Of a stretch of 64,000 nucleotides of DNA, positions 4,995 through 53,535 are shown piece by piece. The DNA lies in NCBI RefSeq assembly GCF_964204645.1, contig NC_134029.1:12550850-12614849 (forward strand). The letters are read 5' to 3'. A program made the translations under genes and the position numbers. This stretch comes from Tubulanus polymorphus (Eukaryota > Animalia > Nemertea). The notes beneath the pieces are model-generated. The model was not told where the DNA came from and made no database searches. It saw only the letters and a program-made list of their open reading frames with translations. Numbering within the stretch: position 1 is the first letter of the stretch; every line of letters starts with the position of its first letter.

Positions 4995-5734
4995 TTATTA
5001 GGAAAAAAAATACTTGTGGTGATGAGTGGTGTCTCGTCCTCTCGTCCTCTGGTATGAAACCCACATCTTCCTATTACTAATATGTAAAAAAATGCAGGGA
5101 AACCTATCTCAATTTGTTTTTAGCGATGCAGCGGAACTAATAAGGAACATTTTGATATATAATATGACTATAGTACACTATCCCTGATGGAATAATAAGC
5201 TCCACTCGACAAACTCGTTCCCGTGCATTTTTATCTCTGTTTCACACACACAGCCCCTCTACCATCAATGCCTAACCCCTGTTCGACCAACTGTGGGCGT
5301 TTTCCTTTGAAACATAAGCCTAATTGTAAAAGATAAGCATTAATCTATGTTAATGCTGCATCTTTATCATGAAACCTAAGAAAGATTATTCTATTATTTA
5401 GGCCTATTCAAATTTTCTGTCCACTACCACGTGGAAATAAGACCCAGTCAAAATTGTGCATCACGCTTTGACGAAGAAATTGGTTCTAGGCTATAAATTT
5501 TACGACTCAAACGAATCTTTTCCTCAACAAAGCCGCTTTTAGTTTGATGCAAAATGAAATTTGCTTTTAAAATGTGTAACTAGGCCTAATCAAAAGGATA
5601 TTTCAAAAGCAAAATTTGCCGGGCCAAGAGCCATATTGAATTCAATTTTTCCGAACCATTATGCCTCTTTCATCATAACATTATTTATCCTATTTCAAGA
5701 TCTTAGGCCTACAAGTAGAGAAAGGGCCTACGTT

Positions 5735-9864: not shown

Positions 9865-10285
9865 AGTAATAGGGGTAATGGGCTTTCAGGCCAAAGGTCG
9901 AAGGGTCGAGCTCATTAAAAAACAAAACATTAAAAGTAATTTAAAACTATAATATATTTTCATAACCGTGTGTATTTTATATTATAACTAAATATTTATT
10001 CTAAGATATCAATAATTTAAATTTTAAATGCATATTGTATTAAATCAATTGGTCGCTCCGCTCCGCGAATGCTCCGCGACCGCTCCGCTCCGCGACCAAT
10101 TGATTTATTTACAGTACCCAAATTCATATAATCAAATATATTTTAATAATAATAATTATTCTATTATTCAACTGAAATACACACGGTTATGAAAATATAT
10201 TATAGTTTTAAATAACTTTTAATATTTGTTTTTAATGAACTCGACCATTCGACCTTTAACCTGAAAGCCCATTACCCCTATTACT
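9865..10285. repeat. Terminal fold-back hairpin (~110-bp arms plus inner 16-bp IR around a GCTCC-repeat core)
   Basis: AGTAATAGGGGTAATGGGCTTTCAGG... is mirrored by ...CCTGAAAGCCCATTACCCCTATTACT. Inner IR TAAATCAATTGGTCGC (10041-10056) pairs with GCGACCAATTGATTTA (10092-10107). Confidence 0.9.
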
Positions 10286-13200: not shown

Positions 13201-13370
13201 TTATTGAAGAAATTGAAAAGATAAGTCTAAACCCATTTGATGATAAAAGATATATTTTAGATGATGGAATTCATACAGTTGCTTATGGTTGTAATTTAGA
13301 TGAATACTTAAAATTTAAAAGAGAAGAAACAAAAGAGAACGAGATAATGAAAAGAATTCTAACGTGTTAA
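10290..13370 (+). pseudogene. Protein-primed family B DNA polymerase (pPolB), 5'-truncated with internal deletions and frameshifts
   Basis: EGSG, DDKCFLW, YGDFE (Exo I), FHNLSGYD (Exo II), FIDS, YIDANNLYG (motif A), KLMNNAFYGK (motif B), YFDTDS (motif C), PFDDKR. Confidence 0.95.
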
Positions 13371-19944: not shown

Positions 19945-19964
19945 TTAATGTTTTTGTAAAATAA

Positions 19965-21211: not shown

Positions 21212-21243
21212 AATTTTAACTTTAATAAAAATTTATATAATAA

Positions 21244-22134: not shown

Positions 22135-22437
22135 GCTTATGCAGATAATCCTTACCAAATATATAAATTAGCGTATAATGGATACCTAGATTTATTTAAT
22201 TTAATATATGATTTTAAGTTTGATTTTGATGGTGATAATTCTCATGATTACTTTGAAAAATTAAGAATAAAAGCTGGATTAAGTGATGATGAATGTAGAA
22301 TGAAGGCTGAAATAGAATAAATAAATATGCCAAAGACTTCTGATGAATTTGATATAAACAAAGATGATTTTATAAATGTATTAGAAACAAAATTAGAATA
22401 ATTATTATAAAACTATTTATATATCTATAAAAATATT

Positions 22438-22765
22438 TATATATCTATGCACTAGACGTATGAGTAAGAAAGTAAGAATCCAAGAATCCTTGCTAAGAAA
22501 TATAAATTATAAACATAAATTATAAACATAAATTATAAACATAAATTATGAACATAAATTATGAACATAAATTATAAATATAAATTATAAACATAAATTA
22601 TAAACATAGTTTTAATATATGATTTATTCATTATTATATATTTCATTTAATAATTCATATTTCTATGGACTAGACGTACGTAAGAATCCAAGATTCTTGC
22701 CAAGAAAGTAAAAAGGTAAGAATCTTACTTTCTTACTCGTACGTCTAGTACATAGATATATAAAT
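22438..22765. repeat. ~40-bp inverted repeat enclosing a 13-bp tandem array (ATAAATTATAAAC x ~8), between convergent genes
   Basis: TATATCTATGCACTAGACGTATGAGTAAGAAAGTAAGA mirrored by TCTTACTTTCTTACTCGTACGTCTAGTACATAGATATA. Confidence 0.8.
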
Positions 22766-22796
22766 TAGTTTCTATAATATTCCAAATTATAAATAG

Positions 22797-23409
22797 TTAT
22801 TTTATAAATTTATATTCATAGGGAAATTGTAATCTCAGTAATAATTTTGAACCTTTATTATTCTTTAATTTATTCATATATTCATCATGTAACTCAGTAG
22901 GTATAATTTGATTTTCTTCCAATGATTGTTGCATAGATTTTTTATCTTTGTTATAAAATAAAACTAGAAATCTTATATTCTCCTTAAAGTCTTTAACAAT
23001 TGAATTATATTTTTGATTTAAAACCCGTGTTGTTATCCCAAAATGTCTCCCAGAGAAAGCTAGATAACATAACTCACTTTCTCTAACTTTTGAATCATTG
23101 TAAATTTGCGCAATCATCTACAATGAATAATGTATTTGATCCTTTATAAGTATCAATTGCTATTTTTATACAAATATCTAAATTTTCTTTTACTGTTTTA
23201 GGATTTAATATAATAAACTTTTTCATCTTAACTATATCTCTATTATATGTTTTATTCATTTCATAAGTAGGACAGAATAATATTATATTATCAAAATGAT
23301 TCTTATAAATAGTTTCTAACAAATCTAATATGAAATGTGTTTTACCACAATTGGTTACTCCAGTTATTAACATATTATGCGGTTCAAATATAAATAAATC
23401 TTTATTCAT
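22797..23409 (-). pseudogene. A32-like packaging ATPase, one frameshift near 23100
   Basis: GVTNCGKT, FIVDD, SGRHFGIT. Confidence 0.9.
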
Positions 23410-24493
23410 TTATTCTTTTAATTTTACTAGATAAAATCCATTCATTAAATTTATCATCGTATCCTTTATATTTCACCAAAGAATACTTTTTTCCTTTAAG
23501 AGTTTTTGTTTTCAATACTTTTTCTATTTTGTATTCTATTTCATCTGGATTTGGTACAAGTGATAATTCTTGTTCATAGAAATAACCTAATATTTCTTCA
23601 TCTTTTAAATCTTCTAATTTATAAACAAATGGTTTAGTTAATATTATCTTTTTAATCTTGAATATTTCTTCTGTAGAATTAGGGGTATAACCTTTATAAA
23701 ATGTTTTTCTATATTTAGATATTCTAACGTGTTGTCCTATTTTGAATTTAGGTTCACCGAAATCATGTGTAACAAATGCGCCATATAAATTATTCCAAAC
23801 TATTTCGGAATTATCTTCTTTTCTAGCTTGTATAGGTTTCATATTTATAGAACTATGTTTAGAATTATTATAACCTTTCACTAAATCATCTAATACATCG
23901 ATATATTTATATGTTTCATTAGCAGTAAAATATTTCCACATTCTAGTTTTCAATGTTTTATTAAATCTTTCTATAATAGATGCTTTTTTATCTGAGTGTG
24001 TTGAAAAATAATCTACATCGTTATCAGATAATAGTTTTTTAAAATGTTTGTTATAGAATTCCTTACCTTCATCAAATTGTATCTTATCTGGAATAGCTTC
24101 TTTAAATATTGATTTAAAAGAATTTGTCACTTCTATACCAGTTTTATTTTCGATTGGAATTGACCATGCGTATCTACTGAATATGTCTATAACATTTAAT
24201 ATCCAGAAATATCCTTTGTTGTATTCCTCTAAGTTCTTCATGTCAATTAAATCTGCTTGCCATTGTTGATCGATATATGAAACCATAACTTTTCTTGTTA
24301 AATAAGTTTTATCCATTTTCTTTTGGATTTGATATGTTGGTTGATTTTGTAACCATGATTTTAATTCGCTATATTTTATACCACCATTTTCATTATCAGA
24401 TTTAATTTTATTCCATAATTCTGAAACGTTAGAATATGATACTTCACTTTCTGGGTTATAATATAAATCTCTTAAATATTGTTCTTTTTTCAT
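23402..24493 (-). CDS. Intact DDE integrase with C-terminal chromodomain
   Basis: WQADLIDM, QFDEGKEF and IIERFNKTLK form the catalytic triad; YKIEKVLK...LVKYKGYDDKFNEWI is the chromodomain. Confidence 0.95.
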   Translation of the reverse strand: MKKEQYLRDLYYNPESEVSYSNVSELWNKIKSDNENGGIKYSELKSWLQNQPTYQIQKKMDKTYLTRKVMVSYIDQQWQADLIDMKNLEEYNKGYFWILNVIDIFSRYAWSIPIENKTGIEVTNSFKSIFKEAIPDKIQFDEGKEFYNKHFKKLLSDNDVDYFSTHSDKKASIIERFNKTLKTRMWKYFTANETYKYIDVLDDLVKGYNNSKHSSINMKPIQARKEDNSEIVWNNLYGAFVTHDFGEPKFKIGQHVRISKYRKTFYKGYTPNSTEEIFKIKKIILTKPFVYKLEDLKDEEILGYFYEQELSLVPNPDEIEYKIEKVLKTKTLKGKKYSLVKYKGYDDKFNEWILSSKIKRINE

Positions 24494-24499
24494 CTTATT

Positions 24500-24868
24500 T
24501 TAATCCATTAATAATAATTTAGATTTAGTTTCAATGGCTTTATGATTTGACTTATTTTCTGGTATAATAGGTTTATTGTCATTGGAATCATCTTTATCAT
24601 TAGATTTGAATTTTGATTTATATATTACACCGGATAATATAATAACTGTTACTAATCCAATTGTAATATATAATTTATAATTACTTCCAGCATTAGAAGA
24701 ATCAGATGAATTATTATTTGAATCAATATCAGATAAAGTCTGTGATTCATTTATATCAGTTAATTTCTTTTTCTTAGCTTTTTTTAACTCTGAAGATCTT
24801 TTACCTAATTCTCTTGCCCATTTAATTTGTTTCTCGGATCTAGCCTTTTTCTTAACGCTATCACTCAT
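24500..24868 (-). CDS. Small basic protein with one TM helix
   Basis: Homolog of 3295-3663. Confidence 0.75.
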   Translation of the reverse strand: MSDSVKKKARSEKQIKWARELGKRSSELKKAKKKKLTDINESQTLSDIDSNNNSSDSSNAGSNYKLYITIGLVTVIILSGVIYKSKFKSNDKDDSNDNKPIIPENKSNHKAIETKSKLLLMD

Positions 24869-25463
24869 TTATTTTAGTTAATTTTTGTTCTGATTCATTT
24901 TCTGTTTCGCTGTTTGGTTGTAGTACATCTGTTTCGTTCTTACCTGATTTATATTCCATAGGCTTGATGTTCGAAAATGTTATGACACCAGTAGAAATTA
25001 ATGTCATAACCGATCCTAATTGAAATGAATAATAACCAACCCATTTTTGTAATTCAGTCATAACTAAATAGTCATTTTTCAAATCACTATATAATTTATT
25101 TTCATCATTAATTGGTATTAACTGGTTACATAACTTAGAATAACATTTGACAATACCATCTGAAATAGAATCATTTATTCGGGCTAATCTTGCCTCTTCA
25201 TAAATCTTAAAATATTTTATTACTTTATCGGGTTTCATAGCATTTAATTCTTGAAAAGTAATAATTCTATTTAAAAACTCTTTAGTTTTTCCACCGGCAA
25301 TCAATAGTTCTAGATGATGCTTACAATATGAATAGTATTCATAATCTATATTACAATTAACTTGAGCACAATTAGTTACAACTGTATCTTTATTATCACT
25401 TATACCCAAATCATCTAATGTTTTTTCAATATCAATACTATTCTTATTAGATTTCTTTGACAT
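24861..25463 (-). CDS. Conserved element protein (~200 aa)
   Basis: Homolog of 2757-3362. Confidence 0.8.
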   Translation of the reverse strand: MSKKSNKNSIDIEKTLDDLGISDNKDTVVTNCAQVNCNIDYEYYSYCKHHLELLIAGGKTKEFLNRIITFQELNAMKPDKVIKYFKIYEEARLARINDSISDGIVKCYSKLCNQLIPINDENKLYSDLKNDYLVMTELQKWVGYYSFQLGSVMTLISTGVITFSNIKPMEYKSGKNETDVLQPNSETENESEQKLTKINE

Positions 25464-26344: not shown

Positions 26345-26479
26345 TTATTATATGTATTTTTTACTAAATTGGTTAATATTTTAGAATCCTCTTCCATTTC
26401 TTCGACCAACGTCATCCTTTTTCATTCCTCGCTGCTTTTGATAAGTTTTTTCGATTCCTTGATATCTAAATAATACCAC

Positions 26480-27005
26480 TGGGCAAAAGCGCGCATTCAT
26501 GCGCGCTTTTGCTTAATGCGCATGCGCTAATCATAATTATATATTCATTATGTAAATTCTGTAAAATAGAAACAACCGAACACAGAAAATATCAAAACGT
26601 GTTCGCATTAAGCAAAAGCGCGCATACAGGCGCGCTTTTGCTTAATGCGCATGCGCTAATCATAATTATATATTCATTATGTAAATTATGTAAAATAGAA
26701 ACAACCGAACACAGAAAATATCAAAACGTGTTCGCATACAGGCGCGCTTTTGCTTAATGCGCATGCGCTAATCATAATTATATATAATTATGTAAATAGA
26801 AACAACCGACATGAAATATCTAAATCATACCACTGAGCAAAACCGCGCATTCGTGCGCGCTTTTGATCAATGCGCATGCGCTAATCATAATTAGGGTTTT
26901 CTGTTATTTCACAGAAAACCCTATTGATATCCGCGTGATTATTATTGGAGTTTTCTGTTATTTCACAGAAAACCCTATTGATATCCGCGTGATTATTACT
27001 ATTAT
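26480..27005. repeat. Array of four ~112-129-bp units with GC-rich palindromes, followed by two AGGGTTTTCTGT/ACAGAAAACCCT-type palindromes
   Basis: GCAAAAGCGCGC...GCGCGCTTTTGC hairpins. TAATGCGCATGCGCTAATCATAATT-type units start near 26511, 26640, 26752 and 26865. Confidence 0.85.
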
Positions 27006-27029
27006 TATTTTCTTCCACACTATTTTTAC

Positions 27030-28852
27030 CAAAAGAACATAGGCTTTGTTACTTTACCGCTGTTTCATATACAATCCATATAATATCGTTCAGCTCACTG
27101 AGATCTACAAATAGCCCGCGTGTTTTTTCACGAATCATCGTTACAAAAGCACTGTCGGGCTGTAAACATCGAAAATTTAGCCCCATTCAATGGGGCGACA
27201 TGTTTTTCGAGTCGTCATCCCGAAATCAACCCGCAGGCCGACTGTCACTTCGATTATCAATTCAAGTATAAATGAACTAATTTATTGCCGCAGACTTCAC
27301 ATTCAGTCGCGGTCTTCAAACAGTGATTTTAACAATAGCCCATTTTCCTCATCAAATCATATTACCGATACACTGGAAATTTACTACTTTAGATTTTAAA
27401 AGCACTGTCGAGCCGTAAACATCGACGAATCGACGTGTGTTACTACATCGACGTTCCGGGGATGAGCTGCGAGTTTCTCCTCATCATGAGAATCAAATCG
27501 AGTACAAATTAATTTATTACTACCAGTGATTTGGCTGCGGGTTTCAAGGAGTTAGTTTAACAATACCTATTTTTCTTTACCGAATTAACCGTGTATTTAC
27601 TAAGATAAATCTTTAGTGTACCGGGGAATCGTAGGCATAAACTAAACAGGCCGAAGAGATATGGCGGAGAAAAGCTGTTATGTTGACGAGGTATCAAAAT
27701 AAAATAATATATTACTTTATTCGGCCGCGGGCTTCAACCATTTATCAATACTCTATATTTCCTACAGTACATACCGATCATTGTCAAATCCACAAGGTAT
27801 TTACTAAATACAAGTATATAACACACTCCTATCCGTATGTTGGACTCACACTTGACATTCGGAGTAAGCGTTCGCTGTGGGGGAAAGGAGATCGTTCGCT
27901 GTGTCGCTTGAAGTGTTTATCGAGCTTTACGCGACCTTAAGGCTTTAGTATGGTGGCTGATAAGATAAAAAAATACGAATATGCAAATGAGGGCGACATT
28001 ACGACAAAACGACAAAACTAAAATAATGCGAGAAAACAATGATTTTGATTTTGTCGCGACAATTCATTATTTTGGTTTTGACACACGCGACAATTCAATA
28101 TTTTGGTTTTATCGCCCGCGACAATTCATTATTTTGGTTTTATCGCCCGCGACAATTCATTATTTTGGTTTTATCGCCCGCGACAATTCATTATTTTGGT
28201 TTTGTCGCCCGCGAAAATTCAATATTTTGGTTTTATCGCCCACGACAATTCACTACTTTGGTTTTATCGCCAGCGACAATTCATTATTTTGGTTTTGTCG
28301 CCCGCGACAATTCTTCTTTTTGGTTTTGCCGGCCGCGACAATTCATTATTTTGGTTTTATATTTTGTTTTTGTCGCCCGCGACAATTTTTTTTTTTTGGT
28401 TTTCTCGCCCGCGACAATTCAATATTTTGGTTTTATCGCCTGCGACAATTCAATATTTTGGTTTAATCGCCTGCGATAATTCATTATTTTGGTTTTGTCG
28501 CCCGAGACAATTCATTATTTTGGTTTTGTCGCCGGCGACAATTCATTATTACGGTTTTATCGCCCGCGACAATTCATTATTTTGGTTTTGTCACCCGCGA
28601 CAATTCACCATTTTGGTTTTGTCACCTGCGACAATTCATTATTTTGGTTTTATCGCCCGCGACAATTCATTATTTTGATTTTATCGCCCGCGACAATTCT
28701 TTTTTTGGTTTTGTCGCCCGCCACAATTTTTTTTTTTGGTTTTGTCGCCCGCGACAATTCAATATTTTGGTTTTATCGCCTGCGACAATTCAATATTTTG
28801 ATTTTATCGCCCGCGATAATTCATTATTTTGGTTTTGTCGCCCGAGACAAAA
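27030..28852. mobile_element. Non-Maverick repeat element ending in a 31-bp satellite; ~27442-28066 is repeated at ~63381-64000
   Basis: Near-identical ~620-bp segment at the window end. The element joins directly to a Maverick gene at 28850. Confidence 0.7.
28057..28852. repeat. 31-bp tandem repeat (~25 copies) CGACAATTCATTATTTTGGTTTTATCGCCCG
   Basis: CGACAA recurs at 28088, 28119, 28150 and onward. Confidence 0.95.
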
Positions 28853-28985
28853 TGTTGATAGATTTGATATAAATGATATTTTAAAATTAACATTAGCAGT
28901 TACTTTATCTAATTTAACTATTGATTATTTGGAAAAACAAAAATATATTCTTCCTATATACATGCATAATTGTTTTGCTAAATAA

Positions 28986-29412
28986 ATGGCTTCTGCAATT
29001 ATAACTATTATAGGATCGGCAATTGTTTACGCTTTAGCATTTACAGGTGGTGGTTATTTATTCAAGCATATTGATAAAAATGGATTATTATCAGAACAAA
29101 AAAGACATAACTTAGCATTAGAGAAATACAATAAAGCAGCAGAAGAATACAGAAAAAAAGAGGCAAAACTACATGGATTATATCAATAAAGAATTATATG
29201 ATCAGAAGATTTCGCATAGAGATTTTCAATCAGTCGATGATGATGCAATAAGTTTATATAACGCGGTAACAAATAAAGAAAAATTACATCTACATAAACC
29301 TAAATTATCAGATTATTATACCCGAAGTAAAGAACAACAGAAATATGAAATAATTTGGATTTTAGGCGGAACAGTTATTGTTATATTTGTAGCATATAAA
29401 TTTACTAAGTAA
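28986..29412 (+). pseudogene. Copy of the 15147 gene, frameshifted
   Basis: Near-identical protein pieces. Confidence 0.75.
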
Positions 29413-29429
29413 TTTTTTTTGCTAAATAA

Positions 29430-29864
29430 ATGGATGATAAAGTTGATAATATTGATATTATTCCTCATGATATAAATGAAACTAAATTAGAATTATATTT
29501 AGAAAAACAAATATTAGAATTTGGAAGTGACTTAAAGATAAAAAAGAAAAAATATTTAAAAAGTAAAATTATATATTATTTTATTATCAGTCGTTCAGTT
29601 ACAATTAGTTCTGTAATAACATTTCTAGCAATATTCAGTCCATTAACACCTTAAGCTATATCAATTGGTGTGTTAGGTTTTAGTTCAAGTGTTTTAACTG
29701 GTATAAGTTCAAAATTAAATATAAAAAGTAATAAAGAAAAAATTAAAACTAATATGAAAGAAATTAATAAATTAAAAAATACACTAGATTATATAATAAG
29801 TTTAAATGGTTATATCACAGTTGAAGAACAAGATAAATTATTAAAAGAATTAATTAATTATTAA
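29430..29864 (+). pseudogene. Copy of the two-TM gene, premature stop
   Basis: TAA at 29652-29654 where the paralog has TTA. Confidence 0.7.
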
Positions 29865-29880
29865 TTTTTTAATTATATAA

Positions 29881-31184
29881 ATGGGGTTTCCAAAAGCTTT
29901 CCAATATAATAGATCAATTAAATATAATATTCCTGCAATAGATTTTAACAAAAATATTACATATAAAAATTAAGTTTTAAATTCATTAACTAATTTAGAA
30001 ATTTATGTTACTGAAACACAGTTCTTTATTTCTAAAATGGAAAATATATTTAATACATATGAAGTCACTTTTACTCGAGATGAATATCATATGTATAAAG
30101 TAAAATCTAATATGAAATATTGGCAGAATCAATTAAATTTTGCTGTTTATTGTGCAACAACTGGTTGTGGTATAAGTTGGAATGATCATTTAAATAACTT
30201 AGATAAAAATTTGAATTATTCTGATTTAAAATTAATTCGCACAATATTTAGATTTCACACGTATTTTCAAATCAGAATAATATTAAATGAATTAGAATGT
30301 CCTTTGCCCGGATCTAAATATTTTAAAGAATTGGACAATAATATTAATCTATCTAAGTTCTATAAAATATGTAATGAATTTAATATAAATATTAATTCCG
30401 ATTTTAGAGCGCATGGTAAATTGCAAGGTATTGGTGAACAGTATGAAATAAAAAGAATTGATTATATGCATAGAATTGGAGCTTATCATAATTATAAAAT
30501 TGATAATAATAATGGTTGGATTAATTTCATTTTAGAAAATAGTGAAGGTTTTACAAAATCAGACATACAAAGAATAAATCATTCAATTAGAACTTATTTA
30601 ATTTGTATTCTAGGTGCACAGGATGAAACAAGATCACCAATAGTTGGAAATGATAACACTTCATTCGATGCGCAGAAACAGTTCAAAGTATTATTTGAAG
30701 ATTCCATTCATAATGATAAAAATAGATCGATTCCAGAAAACATTGTAAGATATCAAAATTATTTAGATAAATCACATATTAGATTAAATTATTGTATAGG
30801 CCCTAATCTATTAATTATTTCTAATGATTTAGTATAAAAGATGGGAAATATAATTGGTTATAATAATCTAATTAAGACTGCAACAATAAATAATTTATTT
30901 GGATTGAATGATATAAATAAAAAGATTATTACTGCTCCAAATTAATGGAAGGTGAAAAAAAATAAAAAACACATTCAATCAACAGAAACTAAAACTAAGA
31001 ATATAATATTAAATAATGATTCTAAAATAAAAGATTACAATACTACAGCAGATATAAAAAACTGATAATATTCAACATGACATAATTAAACTAAATGATG
31101 ATAATAAATCCTAATGAAAATGCTAAATAAGCTATAACTTGTATAGGAATTGTAATCGGAGGAATATTATATTTTAAATTTTAA
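29881..31184 (+). pseudogene. Copy of the YWQNQLNFAVYCATTG gene, disrupted
   Basis: Collinear with 16035-17356. Confidence 0.75.
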
Positions 31185-31199
31185 TTTTTTATTATATAA

Positions 31200-32904
31200 A
31201 TGGAAGAAGATATTCCAATGGATACTTTTGGTGACGCCCCCGGTATAAGTGATGAACCACAACCTGATTTTAATGAAACTAATATTGATAATGATGATGG
31301 ATCAGAATATAATACTTATTTTGGTGAAGATGATTCTAGTGGGCCTATATTATATGATTATGATGAATTTAAATATGATACTGTAACAAGTGAAAAATTA
31401 ATAGATTAATTAAGAACCCGCGATGAGATAATAATTAAAACTAGACCAGAAAGAAAAGATTTAATTAATAGATTAGAAAGAAAAGAAAACCCTGTATTGA
31501 AAAAAGAATTATTATACATAAAACATGGTGTAACAAATACAGTTATTGAAGAACTATTACCAAAAAATGTAACATATAACATTGAACCAGAAGATATTTC
31601 AGAACAAATTAGAAAAGATGATCCACATTTCATGAATAACTTAGAATTTAAAAATGATTCATTGTTTTATAAAGTTGAATTAAATAACGAAACTGTATCA
31701 ATTCAATTATCTAAAATGGGACAAGAAGATCTGTACCATCCTGAAATGCGAGCAAGATCTACAATTGAAGGTTCAAAAGGCGGTAGAGAATTTCTCAGAA
31801 TTATATGGAATGCACTCGATAGAATAAATGAAGAAGAACCAATTCCTAATATTGATATTAACAAATAAATCCAAATCCAAATCCTACTGATGTTGATCCA
31901 GAAATGGAAGAGTATGCAGATCGATTAGATAGATTAAGATCTTCAACACCCGAAACATCGAGAAGAGATATTCAACCAATTGATAATGATTCAAGGCAAT
32001 TACAATTAGTAAAACATTTTGATAGCATGTTAGATACAGTTCATTCATTTGAAGAAGAGATCAATAGTGTTTTAGATACACCCGGTACTGAAACTGGAAT
32101 AAATCGAATACAATCTTTACTAGAAAAAGGATTATTTGATTTAACCGATGATGAATTAGAAGCATTTCCTAAACAAGCACGTAGAGAAATTAAAGGTATG
32201 CAGGAATCAGCTGATAAAATTGCGCATGAAAAAAGTAAAAGAGATATTAAAATTAGATTTTTAGAAAAAGAATTAACTGATAAAAATAAAGAAATAGAAC
32301 AATTAAAGTCTGATTTAGATCATCAAGTAATTGATGAAATAGAATATAGGCAAAAAGAATTACGTTTAGAAAAATAAAAAAGATGATTTAAAATATAACA
32401 GAATTACAAAAAGAAGAAATTAAATTATTATTAAAATCATATGATTATAATATTAATAGATTAAAAATTATTTTCAAAGATTTGTTGATTAAACCAAATT
32501 CTGAAATATCGTTAAAAGATAGAATAAAATTATTATTTACGTTAGAAGGTATAACAATTCTTTCAATTCTAACAGCTGTAACTATCGTGTTTACAACAAT
32601 TGGTTTAGCTATATCAAATTCACTGAAATCTACTCCTACTCCCAATAAACCGGATAAACCTCCGAGTAATAATTCTATACAAGATAAAGTTAAGGATGGT
32701 TTAAAAAAATTAGCAAAATATTTATGGGAACTATCTAAAAAATCTGCTGCAGCTTCACCCGGAGTCATTGCATCAATTGTTAGTTTTATATTGAAATCTG
32801 CAGGAAACATTATTAACTTTGCTGCTGAACATATTATTTTATTTTTAATTACAGTTGGAAGTGCAATTATTTTTGGGTGAGTGAATATGAAAAAAAAAAA
32901 ATAA
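31200..32904 (+). pseudogene. Copy of the long coiled-coil/membrane gene with a divergent central region, disrupted
   Basis: PGISDE N-terminus and hydrophobic C-terminus shared with 17372-19944. Confidence 0.7.
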
Positions 32905-33091
32905 TTTATCTAATACTAAGTTAGTATTAGATAAAACAACTGTTTTATAGTATAAACTGAGAATGAAAATAAACCTGTAAGCATAATAATTGATTTAATA
33001 TTCTGTTGATTTTTATATATTAGATGTAATAAGTTTAATATATTTTCACTCATTTTTATAGTCAAAATATATGAAATTAAAAGATGCTGTT

Positions 33092-33310
33092 TTAATCCTC
33101 TAAATCATTTTCTAAATTAACTTTTTTATTCTTTTTATTTCTGTGATTGTTTCCATTTAACTTCTTTAATTTTTTACTCAATTTATTATTTTCATTCATC
33201 AAATCCTTACTAATATTCTCATAGTATAAATAAAGCGCAGCCAATATTAATCCTCCTGCTACAAGATAATGTTTCAAATCACTTTTCCCAGTTGGAATGA
33301 AACCATCCAT
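33092..33310 (-). CDS. Small TM protein (72 aa)
   Basis: YLVAGGLILAALYLYY TM segment; T-tract-TAAATG start; NGNNHRNKKNKKV shared with 44316-44858. Confidence 0.65.
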   Translation of the reverse strand: MDGFIPTGKSDLKHYLVAGGLILAALYLYYENISKDLMNENNKLSKKLKKLNGNNHRNKKNKKVNLENDLED

Positions 33311-33367
33311 TTATTTAAGAGAAAAATTAAACAGTTTATAAAATGTTAAATATTTATATGTTTCAAT

Positions 33368-35644
33368 TCAAATAACAATTAAACTTACTACTAATTCTTT
33401 ATGCCGCTGAGAATTATATTTTTGCTTGTGCGTAATCAATTTTATCACCTGATATTCTGTTATATTATTCTTGATCATTTCTTTATCGAAAAATTCATTT
33501 GATATGTAAATATTTTCATCATTATGAATTAAAATTAGATGGCGCAATTTATTTCTAAAATATCTAGGATTAATGAAATCAATATTATATTCAGAATTAT
33601 CTTTCAATAGTTCTAAACGCTCGCATTGCTTAATTCTCATATTGTTAAGTTTCATTTTTCTTAAATAATCAGATTCTTTACGTATATCACATACATTTAT
33701 GAAATCATTAGAATTTATCTTTAAATATTCAGTATATTTTTTCATCAATTCAAAATCCATTTTATCAATTATTTCAAAATGATCGTGTGTTATCTTCTTT
33801 ACTTGGAAAATAGGTTTTTCTAATTTTGATAAAATAAAGTGTCTATCAGGGCTATGAACGCCTATTTTTAACTTTTTGATGATTTTTTCTATCAAAGACA
33901 ATTCAAAATAATTATTATTTAATACGTCTAATTGTAATGTTTTTATCAATAATTCTCTTAAATCAGTAGTAGTTTCATAAAAACCTTGATCTGTTAAAAG
34001 ATAACTGAAATAAAGATCTGTTATACATTTACATTGAGTTGAAAAACCTCTAATTTCAAAAATTGTATTATTGTCAATTCCAGATATTTTAGGAGTATAA
34101 TCATTTAATTTTACTTCAGGAATTATTTCAAGTTTTTTAAATTCTGTCTCAAACAATTCATTATCAATATCTAATTGTTGCTTTAATTCATTACAAATTT
34201 TATTTCTATTTTCATCTATATCTTCTTGTAATTGTTTAAGTTCTTTCATTTCTTCTAACTTTTTAAATTCACTTTTAGATAATAATTTTAAATCAAAATC
34301 TTCTTCAATATCAAGTGCATCTAATTTATAAAAAGCTTTAGATTTTATATTGTATCTCTTTTTTAAAGTTGTAAAACTAATTCCTGTTTCACGTAATTTA
34401 AATCTAAATATAAATTTATTCAATACTGTAAACATTGAATTAGTTGAAGATATAACAGTTGCTCCTTCAGTTTTAATATATTTTTTTGCTTCAATAATGA
34501 ATTCTGATTTATCATCATTTTGATTAATTGTTAGGTATAAACATGGGATATTCTTAATTGTAAACATTGATAAAATAAGTAAAAAGGAGGACTCTTCAAT
34601 ATTTTTACTTATCCTAGATTTATATCCTATAAATTTCCTTGCTAATAAATCACCATAATAACAGAAATAAAAGCATTTTTCAATCAAATCATAAATACAT
34701 ACAGTCTGTTGAACCTCATCAAATAATGATTTAAGTTGTAAATATGTAGGTGAATAGTAAATATTTTCTTTTTTTAAGTATTGTTTTATTTTTTCCATCA
34801 CTTTTAATCCTCTTTTAAATGAAATACTTGTTATTTCAATTCTAATCAATCCTGTTTCAATTGATTTTTCAAATGATTCTTTTAACCTCTCTTGATAGCA
34901 ATTTATGTAACTCATTAAATTTGAACCGAAATTTATATTTACACCAGGAGATTTGAATTGACATGCTGTTTTATTATAGATCTTTATTTTATCATCCTTA
35001 TGTAATGCTGAAACACAACTATTGGAAAATTCTTTTAGAACTTTATATTTTCTATTTTCGAACATTGATTTTATTTCATCTGAATTAAATGATCCTTTAA
35101 AATCTTGTGTCACATCTACATCTAATATATTGTAATTTTTTTCATTTAATAATTTTTCAATATTATCCATTTTCTGTATTAATTCATTTAAATTTTGATT
35201 GCATAATGAAATTTTAAATACAGCAATATAATCTGTTAATTTTAATTCTTGATTAATTCTACTTAATATATATGATTTTGAATTATCATCATGAATTGTT
35301 AAAACACGTGTAATTTTTATAGCTAAGTTATCCAATATAATATCTCCTTGATTAAAACATTCTTTAATTTCATAATGTGTTATCTTTCTCTGATTAATGT
35401 TTAGAAAAGTTGTTCTATTTTCTTTTATAATTTCTTTTTCTAACATGATTTTATATAGCATTATATTATCGCAAAATATATCTGATGTTTCAATTAATTC
35501 ATTATTTTCAGATTTATAATACTTATTTATATTTACTCTTGAAATATCTGCTAAATTATTGTTAACAGTTAAATAATATAATATTGAATTTATATATTTA
35601 TTACTCATGTCTTTCGCGGGAACTTTAATTAATCTTGTGCACAT
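33368..35644 (-). CDS. Intact 758-aa protein with a Rep_trans-like (rolling-circle initiator) motif set and a possible C-terminal OB-like domain
   Basis: Long intact ORF with TAAATG start. ILDVDVTQDF, IKIYNK and LIRIEIT occur in the order of the Rep_trans catalytic motifs. The ORF is solid; the function is inferred. Confidence 0.55.
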   Translation of the reverse strand: MCTRLIKVPAKDMSNKYINSILYYLTVNNNLADISRVNINKYYKSENNELIETSDIFCDNIMLYKIMLEKEIIKENRTTFLNINQRKITHYEIKECFNQGDIILDNLAIKITRVLTIHDDNSKSYILSRINQELKLTDYIAVFKISLCNQNLNELIQKMDNIEKLLNEKNYNILDVDVTQDFKGSFNSDEIKSMFENRKYKVLKEFSNSCVSALHKDDKIKIYNKTACQFKSPGVNINFGSNLMSYINCYQERLKESFEKSIETGLIRIEITSISFKRGLKVMEKIKQYLKKENIYYSPTYLQLKSLFDEVQQTVCIYDLIEKCFYFCYYGDLLARKFIGYKSRISKNIEESSFLLILSMFTIKNIPCLYLTINQNDDKSEFIIEAKKYIKTEGATVISSTNSMFTVLNKFIFRFKLRETGISFTTLKKRYNIKSKAFYKLDALDIEEDFDLKLLSKSEFKKLEEMKELKQLQEDIDENRNKICNELKQQLDIDNELFETEFKKLEIIPEVKLNDYTPKISGIDNNTIFEIRGFSTQCKCITDLYFSYLLTDQGFYETTTDLRELLIKTLQLDVLNNNYFELSLIEKIIKKLKIGVHSPDRHFILSKLEKPIFQVKKITHDHFEIIDKMDFELMKKYTEYLKINSNDFINVCDIRKESDYLRKMKLNNMRIKQCERLELLKDNSEYNIDFINPRYFRNKLRHLILIHNDENIYISNEFFDKEMIKNNITEYQVIKLITHKQKYNSQRHKELVVSLIVI

Positions 35645-35874
35645 TTATATATCAAATTTTTATCAAAATAGGTTAAAATTCAAAAAGAGTTAGAGTTCGC
35701 TGAAACCTTACGCTTTAAAATATTTTTTTACCCTTATTGGGGATTTATCTATATCGATATTACATGTTGGGCAGTAGTACTTATTTGCTTCCATTTTAAT
35801 ACTATATTTTTTATTAAAATTGATTTTAAAAGTTCAATGATTTAAATGTTATTCATATATATGAATATTTTAAG

Positions 35875-36142
35875 AGTAATAGGGGTAATAGGCTTTCGGG
35901 TTAAAGGTTGAACGGGCGGGTGAGTAAAAAATGAAAAACATAAAAATAATAACAATTTCTACTTGAATTAGGAGTGAAACTCATAAAAATGAAAAATAAA
36001 TTCGAGCGTGTGAGAATTTATTTTTCATTTTTATGAGTTTCGCGAGTAATTCAAGTAGAAATTGTTATTATTTTTATGTTTTTCATTTTTTACGAGCTCG
36101 ACCGTTCGACCTTTGATCTGAAAGCCTATTACCCCTATTACT
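35875..36142. repeat. Terminal fold-back hairpin (268 bp, near-perfect palindrome)
   Basis: Arms pair from AGTAATAGGGGTAATAGGC to GCCTATTACCCCTATTACT; loop GAGCGTGTGA. Confidence 0.9.
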
Positions 36143-36316
36143 CTTGTGGATTTGATATGTTGGTTGATTTTGTAACCATAATTTTAACTCACTATATTTT
36201 ATATCACCATTTTCTTTATCAGATTTAATTTCATCCCATAATTCTGAAACACTAGGATATGATACTTCACTTTCTGAGTTGTAATATAAATCTCTTAAAT
36301 AGTGTTCTTTTTTCAT
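36143..36316 (-). pseudogene. Integrase N-terminal stub truncated by the M4 terminus
   Basis: MKKEHYLRDLYYN...QPTYQIHK, then reads directly into AGTAATAGGGG. Confidence 0.85.
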
Positions 36317-36322
36317 CTTATT

Positions 36323-36696
36323 TTAATCCATTAATAATAATTTAGATTTAGTTTCAATGACTTTATGATTTGACTTATTTTCTGGTATAATAGGTTTATT
36401 ATCATTGGAATCATCTTTATCATCAGATTTGAATTTTGATTTATATATTACACCAGAGAATATAATAATTGTGATTAACCCAATTGTAATATATAAGTAA
36501 TTATGAGATTCAGCACAGCTGAATCTATCAGATGAATTATTATTTGAATTAATATCAGATAAAGTCTGTGACTCATGTATATCAGTTAATTTCTTTTTCT
36601 TAGCTTTTTTTAATTCTGCAGATCTTTTACCTAATTCTCTTGCCCATTTAATTTGTTTCTCGGATCTCGGATCTTCTTCTTAACGCCATCACTCAT
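36323..36696 (-). pseudogene. Third copy of the small basic TM protein, frameshifted
   Basis: Nucleotide homology to 24500-24868. Confidence 0.75.
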
Positions 36697-38572
36697 TTAT
36701 TTTAGTTAATTTTTGTTCTGATTCATTTTCTGTTTCACCGTTTGGGTGTCGTACGGCGCCATCTGTTTCATTCTTACCTGATTTATATTCCATAGGCTTG
36801 ATATTCGAAAATGTTATGACACCAGTAGAAATTAATGTCATAACCGATCCTAATTGGAATGAAGCATAACCAACCCATTTTTGTAATTCAGTCATAACTA
36901 AGTAGTCATTTTTCAAATCACTATATAATTTATTTTCATCATCAATTGACATTAACCGGTTACATAATTTAGAATAACATTTGACAATACCATCTGAAAT
37001 AGAATCATTTATTCTAGCTAATCTTGACTCATCATAAATCTTAAAATATTTTATTACTTTATCTGGTTTCATAGAGTCTAATTCTTGAAAAGTAATGATC
37101 TTAGTTAAAAATTGTTTACACTTTCCGCTAGCAATTAATAATTCAAGATGGTGATTACAATATAAGTAGTATTCATAATCAATATTACAATTAATATTAT
37201 TTTCAATTTTGGTCGGAATATCCTTATTGATCCGCAGCAAGATTTCGTAGTAGCTAAAAAAATGTTTGTAATGTTGATTTCCTGAATGCGTTGGTGGTTA
37301 TTAATGGTTTCAGACAACAAACGAAGTAAGATGTAGTAAGCAGGTTGTTGTTTGATGCTTTGATCTATCAGCGCTGACCATAAATCAGCCTGGTGTAAAA
37401 ATAATTCTTTCTCGGTTCTTCTGCTGCGTTATCTGGCAAACATTCAGAAATCTTTTTATAAACTTAAGAATAGACGGAACCGTATTTGGTCGGAACAATG
37501 GGTTGCATTAGTTATGCGGCTGGTGGAAGAATCACGCTGTTACTTCATGATACTCCCGACTACTTTCTATAAAAAGAAAAACGGAAGTATGGGGAGACAT
37601 TTTTGCTTTATCCCGTATCGTAATCAAATTTATTTAGTATAATAGTTATAGTATGATTTTAAGAAAGATAATGGATCATAATGAAGTTCCGAATCAAAAG
37701 TATTTATAATGATTCAAAAAGAAATAATCAGTGGTACCGTAATTTGAGATAAATACTAAGTTTCGAAAATATATTTAATTTGAATATCCCAGATGTTAAT
37801 TGAGAACAAAGTCTCTATAATCGCTAAAGTTTTAAGAAAATTAATTTGTGTTAAATGATAATACTAGCTCTCTAAAGTTTCTCTTGTTGTATACGTCTGT
37901 TGATAACTCGCAGAGAATAGCTGTTTTCTCAACGATGATAAGCAAGGAGTGAGTAAATCATTCCGCGTCATGACAGGAGGGTTGGAAGGAAAAAGTTAGT
38001 TCAGCAAATCAGTTTTGAAAATAATTTTAGATCAGCGAATCATTACAGCTAAATTCTATATGACAAAAAACAGTCATGACCGTTACGTTGCTGCTCCTTG
38101 CCAAAAGTCGAGTGGGAGAGTCGGTATTTTAAGAATGCCGATTCTTTCTATAAAAGGGACCCGCATCTTGAGAGAGCAGACACTCGGTAGACACTCGGGA
38201 GACACTCAAAAGACACTCGTAGATACTTGTTAAAAGCTGGTCTTGGACTTGATTCAGGATGGGTTACCAACAGTAGATTGCAATAGGAGGTTAGAGCTAG
38301 GATCTGGATTGTGTTAAACTGGAGAGCTGTGTTTAAAAATATTAAGGTAAATAAATTCATCTTGTATTGTTATATCCATTCAAAATTTCCGGTATTCTAG
38401 TTTTACTTGGGTTTGTGCGCGGACACGTTCTCTCGCCAGGGACCGATTATTGCTTTTATTAATTAACGACTAAGGAGAGGATTGTGACCGGCGTATCATT
38501 ATTATCACTAATGCCAAAATCATCTAATGTTTTTTCAATGTCGGTATTATTCTTATTCGATTTCTTTGACAT
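36689..38572 (-). pseudogene. Third copy of the ~200-aa conserved gene, split by a solo LTR
   Basis: 5' piece 38499-38572 and 3' piece 36689-37227 match 24861-25463. Confidence 0.8.
37228..38498. mobile_element. Solo LTR (1271 bp), probably Ty3/Gypsy
   Basis: TGATCCGC...GCGTATCA ends; 4-bp TSD TTAT (37224-37227 and 38499-38502); TATAAAA and AATAAA on the + strand. Confidence 0.75.
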
Positions 38573-38816
38573 TTATATTAGAGAAAAAAGCGAGAAAAAA
38601 AATATTATAAGTATTATAAAATGATACTAGATAGTTAAGGTTAAAGAATTCTAGTATTAGTTATTGTTTTTTTAGTATTTTTTATTTGTGATATAAAGTA
38701 TTCTCCTTTTGAAAAGAAATGCAAAAGAAAATATTAGAAATTAAAATACATGTAGAAATAATGGATAGTTGAAGGTATGTAATTTTTATTATATTTTATT
38801 TGAGATATATTAATCT

Positions 38817-39494
38817 TTAACCACTTCTTAAAGACTCAACGTATTGTTCATTATTTGGATCATTATTCCATTGATTAATAAATTTCTTTGCCTTTGTTAA
38901 CTGGTCTAAATATAACTGTAAATCTAGTTTGTCATGTTTGATTTTATTTTCTTTCTTTTCAAGAGGTCTTAGATTCTTCCAATTCCAAATTAGTTTTTTA
39001 TTGTATTCATCCTTCATGTTAAATTTAGATAAAGGCAGCACATGATCAATATGAAAATAACTGCCATAATTATTTATATTCATTTTATCATCGAATTGAA
39101 ATATTATCCATGATTTTAGAAATTCATCTGAACAACCCAATAAACTAGATAGTGTTTCTGAGTGTTTGCCTTTACTAAATAAATTTGATAATCTAATTCT
39201 CAAACATTTTTTCAATTTAAAATTAAAATCTGTTTGATATCTGTCTTTATGATATTTATTTTGATACTCATTATAATGTTTTCTATTATTTTCTCGATAT
39301 TGTTTATCTTTTTCTTTACATTTTTCAGTATTATTTATATAATATTTTTTACTATGTTGCTTTTGACAGCTTTTACAACTAACTTGCTTACCATCTTTAG
39401 AATATTTATCTTTATAATATTCTGATAATGATTTATTTATTTTACACTTCAAACATTTCTTATTGTTTATATTGATAGTTTGTGTACTTTTCAT
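38817..39494 (-). CDS. HNH-family endonuclease with zinc ribbon (intact)
   Basis: CLKC, CKSC and HIDHVLP...NLRPL...N..K motifs; paralog of 25673-26344. Confidence 0.75.
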   Translation of the reverse strand: MKSTQTININNKKCLKCKINKSLSEYYKDKYSKDGKQVSCKSCQKQHSKKYYINNTEKCKEKDKQYRENNRKHYNEYQNKYHKDRYQTDFNFKLKKCLRIRLSNLFSKGKHSETLSSLLGCSDEFLKSWIIFQFDDKMNINNYGSYFHIDHVLPLSKFNMKDEYNKKLIWNWKNLRPLEKKENKIKHDKLDLQLYLDQLTKAKKFINQWNNDPNNEQYVESLRSG

Positions 39495-39629
39495 TTATAT
39501 ATCAAATTTTTATTAAAATTGATTAACATTTTAGAATCCTCTTCCATTTCTTCGACTAACGTCATCCTTTTTCATTCCTCGCTGCTTTGATAAGTCGTTT
39601 CGATTCCTTGATATCTAAATCATACCAGT

Positions 39630-39860
39630 TACAATATCCGTGTCGCATGCGGATATCAATGTCCGATTTTGCTTAATACGCATGCGCTAATCATAATTAT
39701 ATATTTATTATGCAAATAGAAACAACCGAACACAGAAAATTCAAACGCATTCGTATTAAGCAAATGCAGACATCAATGTCCGGTTTTGCTTAATACGCAT
39801 GCGCAATTCATAATTATATATTTATTATGCAAATAGAAACAACCGAACACAGAAAATTCA
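39630..39860. repeat. Two ~118-bp units homologous to the 26480 palindromic array
   Basis: TTTTGCTTAATACGCATGCGC...AATAGAAACAACCGAACACAGAAAAT occurs twice. Confidence 0.8.
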
Positions 39861-40645
39861 CCAAGCAGATTTACAAAATACATTTACAAGTATGTTCGGT
39901 CGTTTCATCCAATACATCATTTGATTTCTATATATAAAATCTATAATTACAAACATTTTTTCAATTTCCGGTAAATATTTAACTACATCAACAAATTTTA
40001 AACTTAATCATTGGAATTTTTGGAGTAAGTCTAAATGTTTTTGAAATTCTTATATAGTTTCTTCGTCGATCTTTTGTTATTCTTGTGGTTCTACGCCAAT
40101 TTCTATTGGTTCGATATCCATTGCTGTCGATTCCTCAGAAAGAGTATCTTGAGTTTCTCTATCGCTTCTTGATGCGTGTGACATTTTATTAATCTAAAAG
40201 ATATTAGTGGTAACTCTAATTATCTAAAAGATATACTAAATACACTTAAATATATTTAAAGGTTTCATATTTAGTAGCCCCAATAACAACAAAAACAGTA
40301 CTTACATTTAGATTTAGAACTGTAAACCTTAACTCCGAATTGTGTTTCGATAGATAAATCCTAAACGTTCTGTATACACCATCTATTCAGTCCGGGCGCG
40401 CCTTCCAGAATGATCTTATGCGTCTGCGGTTTTATATACTCAACAGGCGCCGTGTGTCACTATGGCAACTATAGCAACAGGTGTTTTTGTAAAAATAAGA
40501 GACATGTATTAGGCCTATATTATATTTATTTTACATGTTGAACAGTAGTACTTCTTATTTGCTTACATTTTAATATCAAATTTTTTATTAAAATTGATTT
40601 TAGAAGTTATTCATATATTTTATTCATATATATGAATATTTTAAG

Positions 40646-40797
40646 AGTAATAGGGATAATGGGGTTTCAGGTTAAAGGTTGACGGGGCGAATGAGTAAAA
40701 AATGAAAAATAAATTCGAGCGTGCGAGAATTTATTTTTCATTTTTTATGAGCTCGACCGTTCGACCTTTGGCCTGAACCCCCATTATCCCTATTACT
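40646..40797. repeat. Terminal fold-back hairpin (152 bp)
   Basis: AGTAATAGGGATAATGGGG pairs with CCCCATTATCCCTATTACT; loop GAGCGTGCGA. Confidence 0.9.
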
Positions 40798-41820: not shown

Positions 41821-43140
41821 AGAGATAGTGATTTAATACTTTCTAAAAGTTACAATGATTTGATTAACTTAAGAATTGAAAACAGACAATTATATTATTT
41901 AAATTTTGATAATAAACAAATTATCTATAATGAAAATTCATCAAATATTGGTATTCAATGTGATTTAGATAGTGAAAAATCATTTAAAGATATTGCAGTT
42001 CAATGTAATTTAGATGGTGAATTTAGAAAATTCAATCCTAATGAAAATGTATTGTTATTGCGGGGGCAAATATTTAAAATCACATAAATCAAAGCATTAT
42101 CAGACAATTAAACATACCAATTATGAAAGGAATAATAATTCTATATTGAAATAAGATTAAGCTGTATGAGTAATTCAATATAAGATATTTCAAATTACTT
42201 ATTGGAATGGTTATACATACATTTATATCAACTGCTCACTAGAGCAGTAACATGTTCAGCAGTAACGTGTATTCAACTGTGTTTAACTGTATTAAACTGT
42301 ATTTAATTGCATTACATCTGTACGTCATGCTCAGTACACATCATGTGATATTTCACTATACATATCGATATGTAAAGGGTAGAGGGGAGTCACTTTGAGA
42401 ACTACTTAAATGTCAACACCGAGTCCTACTGCTAGTCACTTCTTTCTGGAGAAAAGGTATTGACATAATGGTCCCTCGAGCCGAGAAAGAGATCAAAACT
42501 TCTTAGAAGAAGCCAGAGAATCAGAGAACAATGGCGGAGAATTCAGCTACCGAAAAATCAGGAGCTGGTGTACAACTTTCGACGTTCAGCAAACAGAAGA
42601 GTTGTGAACGCTCTTACCTCTGCATGTGATACAGCTATCAGGGAACACGACTTACTAAAGGCTAGTATTAATTTGAACAATCTCAAACGCAAATTCAGCC
42701 AGTTAGAGATAATTGATGCCCATTTATTAGACGAGATCCATTCTGATAATGAAATAGAACAATTTATTTTGGAAGCTGAAGATTATTTGAACAATTTGAA
42801 TCCTCAGTGAATATAAAAGGCGCTGGAAAGGTGAATACTCGTTAAATTTGCGCGAATATCAGAAATGTAAGGGAGTACGGAATTAGTCAAAAAGGCTTTG
42901 GTTTCAGGTTTATTTTCATTTTCAGTTTACTCATTAAAACAGACGTTAGAATTCTATGATAACTGCAAAATTAGATACGCCGAATTAAAAGATAATATCA
43001 ATTATATTTCAGATAGATTGAATAATATTAAATACTGTGAAATATGTAATAAGAAGTATAAAGATAAAAAATCATTAAGGAATCATTGGTATATTCACGA
43101 GCTAAATGAAAAATTATATAATTCAAATGAAGCAATAAGT
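41821..43140 (+). pseudogene. Inverted copy of the 44316-44897 gene region, interrupted by an LTR-element fragment
   Basis: 41860-42040 and 42900-43137 match the two ends of the 180-aa ORF. Confidence 0.8.
42050..42899 (+). mobile_element. 5' fragment of a BEL/Pao element (LTR remnant, PBS, gag start)
   Basis: TGGTCCCTCGAGCCG near 42469 resembles a tRNA-Tyr PBS and is followed by a helical gag-like frame (LEIIDAHLLD...IEQFILEAEDY). Confidence 0.6.
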
Positions 43141-44277: not shown

Positions 44278-44315
44278 TTATTATAGATATTTCTATTAAA
44301 ATATCATTAAAAAAC

Positions 44316-44858
44316 TTAATTTGAATTATATAATTTTTCATTTAGCTCGTGAATATATCTGTGATTCCATAATGATTTTTTATTTTTATACTTCTTATTG
44401 CATATTTCACAGCATTTAATATTATTCAATCTATCTGAAATATAATTGATATTATCTTTTAATTCGGCGTATCTAATTTTGCAGTTATCATAGAATTCTA
44501 ACGTCTGTTTTAATGAGTAAACTGAAAATGAAAATAAACCTGAAACCATAATTATTAATTTCAGTTGCTCTTGATTTCTGTAAATAAGATGTAATAAATT
44601 TAATATATTTTCACTCATTTTTATAGTTTTAACTTTTTTATTCTTTTTATTTCTGTGATTGTTTCCATTGAATTGAATTGGATTGAATTTTCTAAATTCA
44701 TCATCTAAATTACATTGAACTGCAATATCTTTAAATGATTTTTCATTATCTAAATCACATTGAATACCAATATTTGATGAATTTTCATTATGGATGATTT
44801 GTTTATTGTCAAAATTTAAATAATATAATTGTCTTTTTTCAATTCTTAAGTTAATCAA
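44316..44858 (-). CDS. Hypothetical protein with hydrophobic segment and C-terminal C2H2 zinc finger (possibly two fused genes)
   Basis: CEICNKKY...H.YIH finger. The internal MSENILNL start is also present near 33050. Confidence 0.55.
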   Translation of the reverse strand: MINLRIEKRQLYYLNFDNKQIIHNENSSNIGIQCDLDNEKSFKDIAVQCNLDDEFRKFNPIQFNGNNHRNKKNKKVKTIKMSENILNLLHLIYRNQEQLKLIIMVSGLFSFSVYSLKQTLEFYDNCKIRYAELKDNINYISDRLNNIKCCEICNKKYKNKKSLWNHRYIHELNEKLYNSN

Positions 44859-44902
44859 ATCATTGTAACTTTTAGAAAGTATTAAATCACTATCTCTTTC
44901 AT

Positions 44903-45208: not shown

Positions 45209-45432
45209 TTTTATAACAAGATTTTTATTAAAATGAATCTAACTCATTCAAATATAAATATTCAATGTTAAAATATGAATTATTTCTCACACTTTTATGT
45301 TTAAAAATTAAGAATCGTTAATTACTCGTTACTTTTAATATTTTTTTTAACTGTCCATTTATTTTACCTATTTTTTTATTCGAAATCAATGAAATTCATG
45401 TAAATAATATTCATTTATATGAAATTATTAGA

Positions 45433-45528
45433 AGTAATAGGGAATATGGGGGTTCAGGTCAAAGGTTGAAGGGGAGAGTAAGCTCGACCCTTCGACCTTT
45501 GGTATGAACCCCCATATTCCCTATTACT
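45433..45528. repeat. Terminal fold-back hairpin (96 bp)
   Basis: AGTAATAGGGAATATGGGGGTTCA pairs with TGAACCCCCATATTCCCTATTACT. Confidence 0.9.
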
Positions 45529-53437: not shown

Positions 53438-53535
53438 CGATCTGGTTCGCCTTTTAACAATGTTCAGATTCGTTGGGAGAGGATCGTGTTGAGATTTCCA
53501 TGGTAGTTTAGCGATATAACTATTCTCTGATTTCG

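Follow-up and report, generated by a model that had tools for sequence, protein, structure and literature searches.

Rolling-circle endonucleases with a TBP fold are described in two papers of 2026, PMC13107129 among them, for bacteria (Rep_trans) and archaea (Rep-Arvir). According to the available sections of PMC13107129, Rep_trans is apparently restricted to bacteria, and the catalytic set of RepC consists of D46, D142, Y191 and E214. No eukaryotic Rep_trans-like element was found among the matches listed in a literature search that included the available part of PMC13595969 and had subscription papers and Repbase outside its scope.

The locus compared here with these systems lies in a 64-kb window (the whole stretch of DNA that was analysed), an AT-rich cluster of decayed Mavericks with a Pao/BEL retrotransposon, a content from which an animal host is likely. 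An ORF of 758 aa on its minus strand has an ATG start and no internal stop, and its product is, on the strength of structure prediction and conservation, very probably a Rep_trans-like tyrosine nickase. The initial annotation had called this ORF the only long intact non-retroviral one in the cluster; it is intact and the longest of its kind, but there are other stop-free ORFs of 487, 394 and 363 aa, the last being an rve integrase with a chromodomain. The nickase gene is intact and most of the neighbouring genes are broken. Contigs nearly 100% and nearly 88% identical to it occur in runs X1 and X2, as does one with a 441-bp deletion. An assembly artefact was rejected, the ORF and the adjoining hairpin being covered by reads and contigs from other runs. 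The gene and its immediate surroundings comprise the following features.

33368..35644, minus strand: predicted Rep_trans-like (TBP-fold) tyrosine nickase ORF (ORF list, model and family searches)
34751..35494, minus strand: predicted TBP-like saddle, residues 51-298, with D59 (35468-35470), D177 (35114-35116), D181, Y223 (34976-34978), K225, R268 and E270 (34835-34837) (model and conservation)
33092..33310, minus strand: ORF of 72 aa that includes a hydrophobic stretch and lies downstream of the nickase gene, with an end also present in the element at 44630-44670 (sequence comparison)
32916..33053, minus strand: 45-aa ORF with a hydrophobic stretch, a shortened homologue of the 100-aa C2H2-finger ORF at 44316-44618
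32906..32934, no strand: perfect short palindrome (stem of 13-14 bp) where the segment meets Maverick DNA
35735..35874, no strand: inner flank, found again with another hairpin copy at 40507-40645 (84%) and, less well matched, at 45408-45432

The 72-aa ORF had no Pfam match. The left end of the nickase segment has likely been lost, since a small ORF, longer in the sister element (44316-44618), is truncated there; the palindrome at 32906-32934 may be a true end, a terminator or a break scar. Giant viruses and virophages have stem-type 3'-end signals, and the AT-rich, perfect or near-perfect stems lying directly at the end of the last gene in the window (32906-32934) and in one metagenome locus, L006 (2693-2751), may by analogy be signals of this type.

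The saddle domain was modelled with a pLDDT of 93.3 and a pTM of 0.90, and the model predicts the two-lobed, TBP-like fold of the Rep_trans type, in agreement with what had been proposed from the sequence. The motifs reported at that time are all present, namely ILDVDVTQDF (D175, D177, D181), KIKIYNK (Y223) and LIRIEIT (R268, E270), and exactly 46 residues separate D177 from Y223, as estimated; a fourth conserved acidic residue, D59, was absent from the initial annotation. A putative catalytic Tyr in YNK and three acidic residues (D59, D177, Y223, E270) occur in the order found in RepC, which has D46 in SFDAM, D142 and D146 in RLDLAFD, Y191 in IYNK and E214 in RVEIE, the residue equivalence being based on this order and on aligned ranges, not on residue-level superposition. 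The D-D, D-Y and Y-E spacings are 118, 46 and 47 in the window protein versus 96, 49 and 23 in RepC; the longer Y-to-E distance and the D that replaces R two residues before the second Asp are the two departures from Rep_trans that had been pointed out, and both are real.

The predicted TBP-like saddle is shared with Rep_trans (PF02486: pT181 RepC/RepD, PDB 4cwc and 4cwe; RepSTK1, 4cij; inovirus gene II/G2P), as is the residue order D...DxxxD...IYNK...RxE, and the gene adjoins a hairpin in both; however, RepC has 314 aa, whereas the 758-aa window protein has extra C-terminal domains and a eukaryotic context. Profile-profile alignment with RepC by hhalign gave a misregistered, non-significant match (probability 0.1-2%) against a shallow RepC profile (Neff 1.45). 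Of the proposal of a Rep_trans-like initiator, the TBP-like fold and the conserved D/Y/R/E residues have held, but neither a Pfam PF02486 match nor a profile-profile match was obtained; the protein is predicted to act like Rep_trans, probably as a non-member of PF02486. It likewise resembles Rep-Arvir (DUF7845, from archaeal viruses and plasmids), whose members are described in the available sections of PMC13107129 as divergent TBP-fold nickases recognised by structure only, with three acidic residues, a Tyr and a neighbouring hairpin, but with KHYYM and a MarR-like wHTH where the window family has YNK and beta-rich C-terminal domains. The ORF and 16 homologues had no match to DUF7845, and the family motif is IYNK/xYLK, not KHYYM. 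As regards HUH enzymes, no conserved His was found among the near-invariant columns, and the predicted fold is TBP-like, not of the RRM type.

Beyond the saddle, an alpha/beta middle domain (about 305-445) and a long helix (457-498) are predicted, and residues of about 520-758 are likely to form two beta-rich OB/SSB-like domains, a call made from weak Foldseek rows (SSB, E 1.2e-2; an RPA-related protein, E 1.8e-2). The link between these C-terminal domains and the Maverick ORF at 13400 comes from P0002; family HMMs of both domains did not detect this ORF.

Word-index searches yielded five and then eight homologues, and a nine-sequence profile reached 778 clusters (E up to 1e-3; the best 150 listed) among 1.84 billion representatives. 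The alignment contained the query and 133 of the 155 stored homologues (134 sequences); short fragments made up most of what was left out, together with four proteins of about 1,200 aa. Counted over the rows that have a residue at the position, D59 was conserved in 116/118, D177 in 131/132, T179 in 128/132, D181 in 132/132, Y223 in 133/134, K225 in 133/134, R268 in 127/132 and E270 in 127/131, so that the D/Y/R/E set in question is near-invariant, although these figures are partly circular because the profile itself selects such columns. The window ORF is an intact member of this family, which is large, has no name and consists of proteins predicted to be TBP-fold tyrosine nickases.

With an E threshold of 1 for the ORF and 16 homologues and of 1e-3 for 45 more, the family had no Pfam match, and no integrase or helicase fusion was seen in the 45 homologues scanned. 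PHROGs gave nothing convincing (best E 0.025; one member against a 'replication protein' family, E 0.052), and no match was found among PDB sequences, in Rfam, by tblastn against plasmids and phages, or when viral contigs were scanned with five patterns. Prokaryote genomes, scanned twice, yielded no locus and one locus, respectively, the latter being a 1,384-bp contig with 36% GC from an Alphaproteobacteria assembly and likely contamination; absence from the pattern scans weighs little, as they require short exact motifs. One of 30 clusters looked up was labelled as the ctenophore Pleurobrachia bachei and two others as 'hypothetical protein', and the match in metagenome locus L014 sits among Ig-domain sequence. 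On the ctenophore label, this Ig-domain context and the single small prokaryotic contig, the family looks eukaryotic, with a poorly documented host range.

Upstream of the gene lies the hairpin, four further copies or part-copies of which, absent from the initial annotation, bring the number of such ends in the window to five.

35875..36142, no strand: 268-bp imperfect palindrome, starting AGTAATAGG and ending CCTATTACT, with the outer end of the element at 36142
9865..10285, no strand: sister hairpin end of 421 bp, oriented the other way and fused, 9 bp inside, to the middle part of a broken pPolB-like gene
40646..40797, no strand: sister hairpin end of 152 bp
45433..45528, no strand: sister hairpin end of 96 bp, leading inward to an unknown ORF, counterparts of the two small ORFs above and an HNH-like gene that the Mavericks have as well
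5030..5078, no strand: outer arm of a fifth, decayed end, adjoining a remnant (4672-4956) of the Maverick 13400-13753 gene

The palindrome at 35875-36142 folds with -119.4 kcal/mol (z -29), a value equalled in none of 200 shuffles, and the ATG of the nickase gene is 230 bp from its inner arm, as had been stated. In raw reads of run X5, another sample with the same species label (about 12% of the run), 1,980 reads exit at 36142 and 476 at 36143 with an agreement of 0.34-0.35, inner-side exits agree at 0.96 and 0.79, and at the outer edge of the 9865 copy 1,905 reads exit with an agreement of 0.34 (best-supported rows, the best 18 of 1,236 and the best 6 of 474). The hairpin is thus a terminus, as first supposed, with a precise outer end at 36142 and the same pattern at the 9865 copy: the hairpin-ended element is abundant, and 36142 is a true element end. 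Depth in X5 is about 32 over the nickase gene versus 1,600-2,100 over the hairpin, so by read depth only about 1 in 50-65 hairpin ends has the gene behind it; the two commonest other interiors were not found within the window. A symmetric MITE was rejected as the source of the hairpin, mixed flanks occurring on the outer edge only among the rows listed.

In the first 26 bp of the hairpin copies, five columns vary with both arms changing together and four more have single mismatches; further in, inner arms have T where outer arms have C in all four copies. Rolling-hairpin replicons of the parvovirus type show flip and flop isomers of the terminal palindrome; here one arm polarity was found in four of four copies, which are few for a flip/flop test. 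The remnant at 4672-4956 is 28% identical to the Maverick 13400-13753 gene (E 1.5e-10). That the hairpin is the usual neighbour of the pPolB-like gene at 10347 was rejected, 718 reads leaving the window sequence at 10294 and continuing as the 35875 copy does on its inner flank.

The DNA on either side of the nickase segment belongs to a second Maverick copy (28851-32909 and 36142-39857), which is colinear with the first.

36143..37194, minus strand: target, comprising part of a Maverick rve-integrase gene together with the genes that follow it, with 91% identity to 24319-25360
32182..32909, plus strand: left neighbour, part of a Maverick gene with 88% identity to 19218-19949

The integrase gene is split by the hairpin end, and X1 contigs run on at 36142 into an uninterrupted integrase. 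The equivalent of 19950-24318 (capsid, ATPase and 3' part of the integrase) is missing beside 32182-32909, and the nickase segment (32906-36142) occupies the site where the second Maverick copy lacks the capsid-ATPase block. In the first copy, Pfam identified rve and a chromodomain (23402-24493), a Pox_A32 ATPase (23095-23409) and, weakly, a capsid protein (19965-20360); 10347-13370, which we take from its motifs to be pPolB, had no polymerase match in Pfam. Genes for pPolB, rve integrase, ATPase and capsid are absent within 32906-36142, the left side of which is cut, and from the 9.5-kb metagenome locus L005. The end hexamer AGTAAT agrees at 5 of 6 positions with the Maverick motif ((AGT)2//(ACT)2 or (AG)3//(CT)3). 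The window holds no complete copy for a TSD comparison, and the flank at 9865 matched none of the three right-facing outer flanks downstream.

Several other repeats were recorded in the cluster. The inverted ends of the first Maverick (9540-9655 and 26879-27030) are tandem units of ~58 bp, each with a small palindrome, at a depth of about 3,000 and with a unit number that varies in reads; its right end is probably near 27030. Between its converging halves, 55-bp inverted arms flank a 13-bp tandem array (22402-22807), and subterminal repeats of 112-129 bp with GC-rich palindromes occur in both Maverick copies (26462-26893 and 39622-39860). A Maverick of another subfamily, in which capsid, integrase and ATPase genes follow one another in this order on a single strand, occupies 1-3663 and may extend to the hairpin arm at 5078. 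Parts of the 44315-44897 element recur inverted (96-97%) at 41821-43132, where about 860 bp of other DNA lies in the middle. The Pao/BEL LTR retrotransposon (49381-55871; Pao domains by Pfam at 50231-55383) is a recent insertion, judging from its identical 227-bp direct repeats and long ORFs. A 31-bp tandem array of about 30 units (27931-28956) is partly repeated, with its left flank, at 63377-64000, and a 500-bp fold-back with 121-bp arms (59082-59587), unlike the AGTAATAGG ends, lies beside a 70-bp tandem array (59645-60277).

Among 14 metagenome loci with homologues, L001 and L002 terminate in perfect fold-backs of 22 and 23 bp, about 1.1 kb downstream of the gene, and L005 has inverted ends of 1,045 bp, both stopping in the inner arm of a hairpin of the L001/L002 type; the three count once, being one lineage, and their end sequence differs from that of the window. 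In L006 the stop codon coincides with a 27-bp stem, and in L014 an inverted repeat of 32 bp lies 350 bp away from the match; most of the other contigs are too short for their ends to be judged. None of the 14 loci matched other window genes, Maverick genes included. Additionally, L001 starts with a second, unrelated hairpin (1-288; perfect 77-bp stem), and L005 carries at 6028-8199 two inverted copies (80%) of a 209-aa ORF with no Pfam match.

We tentatively favour, with a probability of roughly 0.45, the reading of the element as a Maverick-related linear replicon, copied from fold-back ends, inserted by a Maverick integrase and using the nickase to resolve its hairpin, because the end hexamer is one letter off the Maverick motif, sister ends lead into Maverick accessory genes, and rve-integrated elements that end in palindromes and carry replication genes other than pPolB were reported in 2026. 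Off the chromosome, the palindrome would fold back and prime synthesis by a borrowed polymerase; Y223, with metal held by D59, D177 and E270, would nick beside the hairpin and stay joined to the 5' end, and the hairpin would then be copied out into a full palindrome, the terminal resolution that parvoviral Reps perform with an unrelated HUH fold. The C-terminal beta domains would bind displaced single strands, the AGT...ACT ends would be inserted by the rve integrase from Mavericks, and most hairpin ends would belong to relatives without a nickase gene that use the nickase in trans.

The fixed polarity of the arms (4/4 copies) and the pairing of one precise end with a ragged other end (5/5 window copies) would also suit a rolling-circle-type transposon, comparable to Helitrons, Replitrons and IS91 but non-HUH, with the protein as its transposase: the enzyme would recognise and nick the hairpin end, peel off one strand and join it to the target without a TSD; one-ended events would account for the varied interiors and the captured Maverick pieces. 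Such a transposase would also accord with integrase/helicase fusions in 0/45 homologues scanned, with Maverick genes in 0/14 metagenome loci and with the hairpins that Rep transposons generally have at one or both ends (PMC10288648, available sections). We nevertheless consider it somewhat less likely, though a close rival, since a decayed cluster would also give ragged inner ends, five of the six letters of the end hexamer fit the Maverick motif, L005 has symmetric 1-kb inverted ends, and the window hairpins (96-421 bp) are far above the 11-bp palindrome of Replitron-1 (PMC10288648, available sections). Hairpin ends exceed the gene about 50-65 to 1 at a depth of the same order as that of Maverick genes, and different genes lie behind the same end in other copies, which could mean that the hairpin terminates the members of an ordinary Maverick subfamily moved by an integrase, and that the nickase gene is cargo or a separate selfish gene that inserted near the end and has no role at the hairpin. 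This is improbable, however, in view of the intactness of the gene amid mostly broken neighbours, the pairing of hairpin ends with the gene in one distant lineage too (L001/L002/L005), and the local nature of the hairpin-pPolB join at 9865, past which reads continue from 10294 like the inner flank at 35875. Very improbable is a non-catalytic, viral-type TBP-like DNA-binding or transcription factor, against which stand the near-invariant D, D, Y-x-K and R-x-E in Rep_trans order, a set that, to our knowledge, is not expected of TBPs.

Whether moved as a hairpin-primed, Maverick-related replicon or by direct transposition, the locus rather probably represents widespread, undescribed eukaryotic hairpin-ended linear elements, parasites or derivatives of Mavericks, that would have a TBP-fold nickase fused to SSB domains of their own and, as replicons, would perform rolling-hairpin replication without an HUH enzyme or a protein-primed polymerase. 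If so, the 778-cluster family without a Pfam model would be the eukaryotic branch of the TBP-fold rolling-circle endonucleases, a type reported to date from plasmids and viruses of bacteria and archaea only, and would offer a candidate enzyme for resolving hairpin ends in palindrome-ended virophages/PLVs without pPolB; a transposase would instead mean new chemistry for eukaryotic transposition. With an intact gene beside a precisely mapped end, both the replicon and the transposase readings are testable in vitro.

Within the available parts of the sources, the palindrome-ended virophages/PLVs of Halocafeteria (bioRxiv 10.64898/2026.07.28.741278) likewise have terminal palindromes at the integration edge and a non-pPolB replication gene near one end, with hairpin priming proposed, but their palindromes are of about 52 nt (96-421 bp in the window), capsid genes are present, and the text names pPolB, D5 primase-helicase and PolA-S3H and no nickase, although more replication genes may be given elsewhere in the preprint, which counts five replication proteins. 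PMC11296320, in its available part, offers the general end-module idea only. Animal Mavericks/Polintons (PMC8097293, available sections) have an AGT...ACT-type end, which the window hexamer fits at 5 of 6 positions, and, within the window, accessory genes in common with these elements, but carry pPolB, capsid and integrase, whereas the nickase segment is without these and has a long terminal hairpin. Replitrons and Helitrons (PMC10288648, available sections) are likewise mobile elements of eukaryotes that combine a tyrosine nickase with palindromes at their ends, but they use HUH (RRM-fold) enzymes, in contrast to the window protein with its predicted TBP-like fold and no HUH motif.
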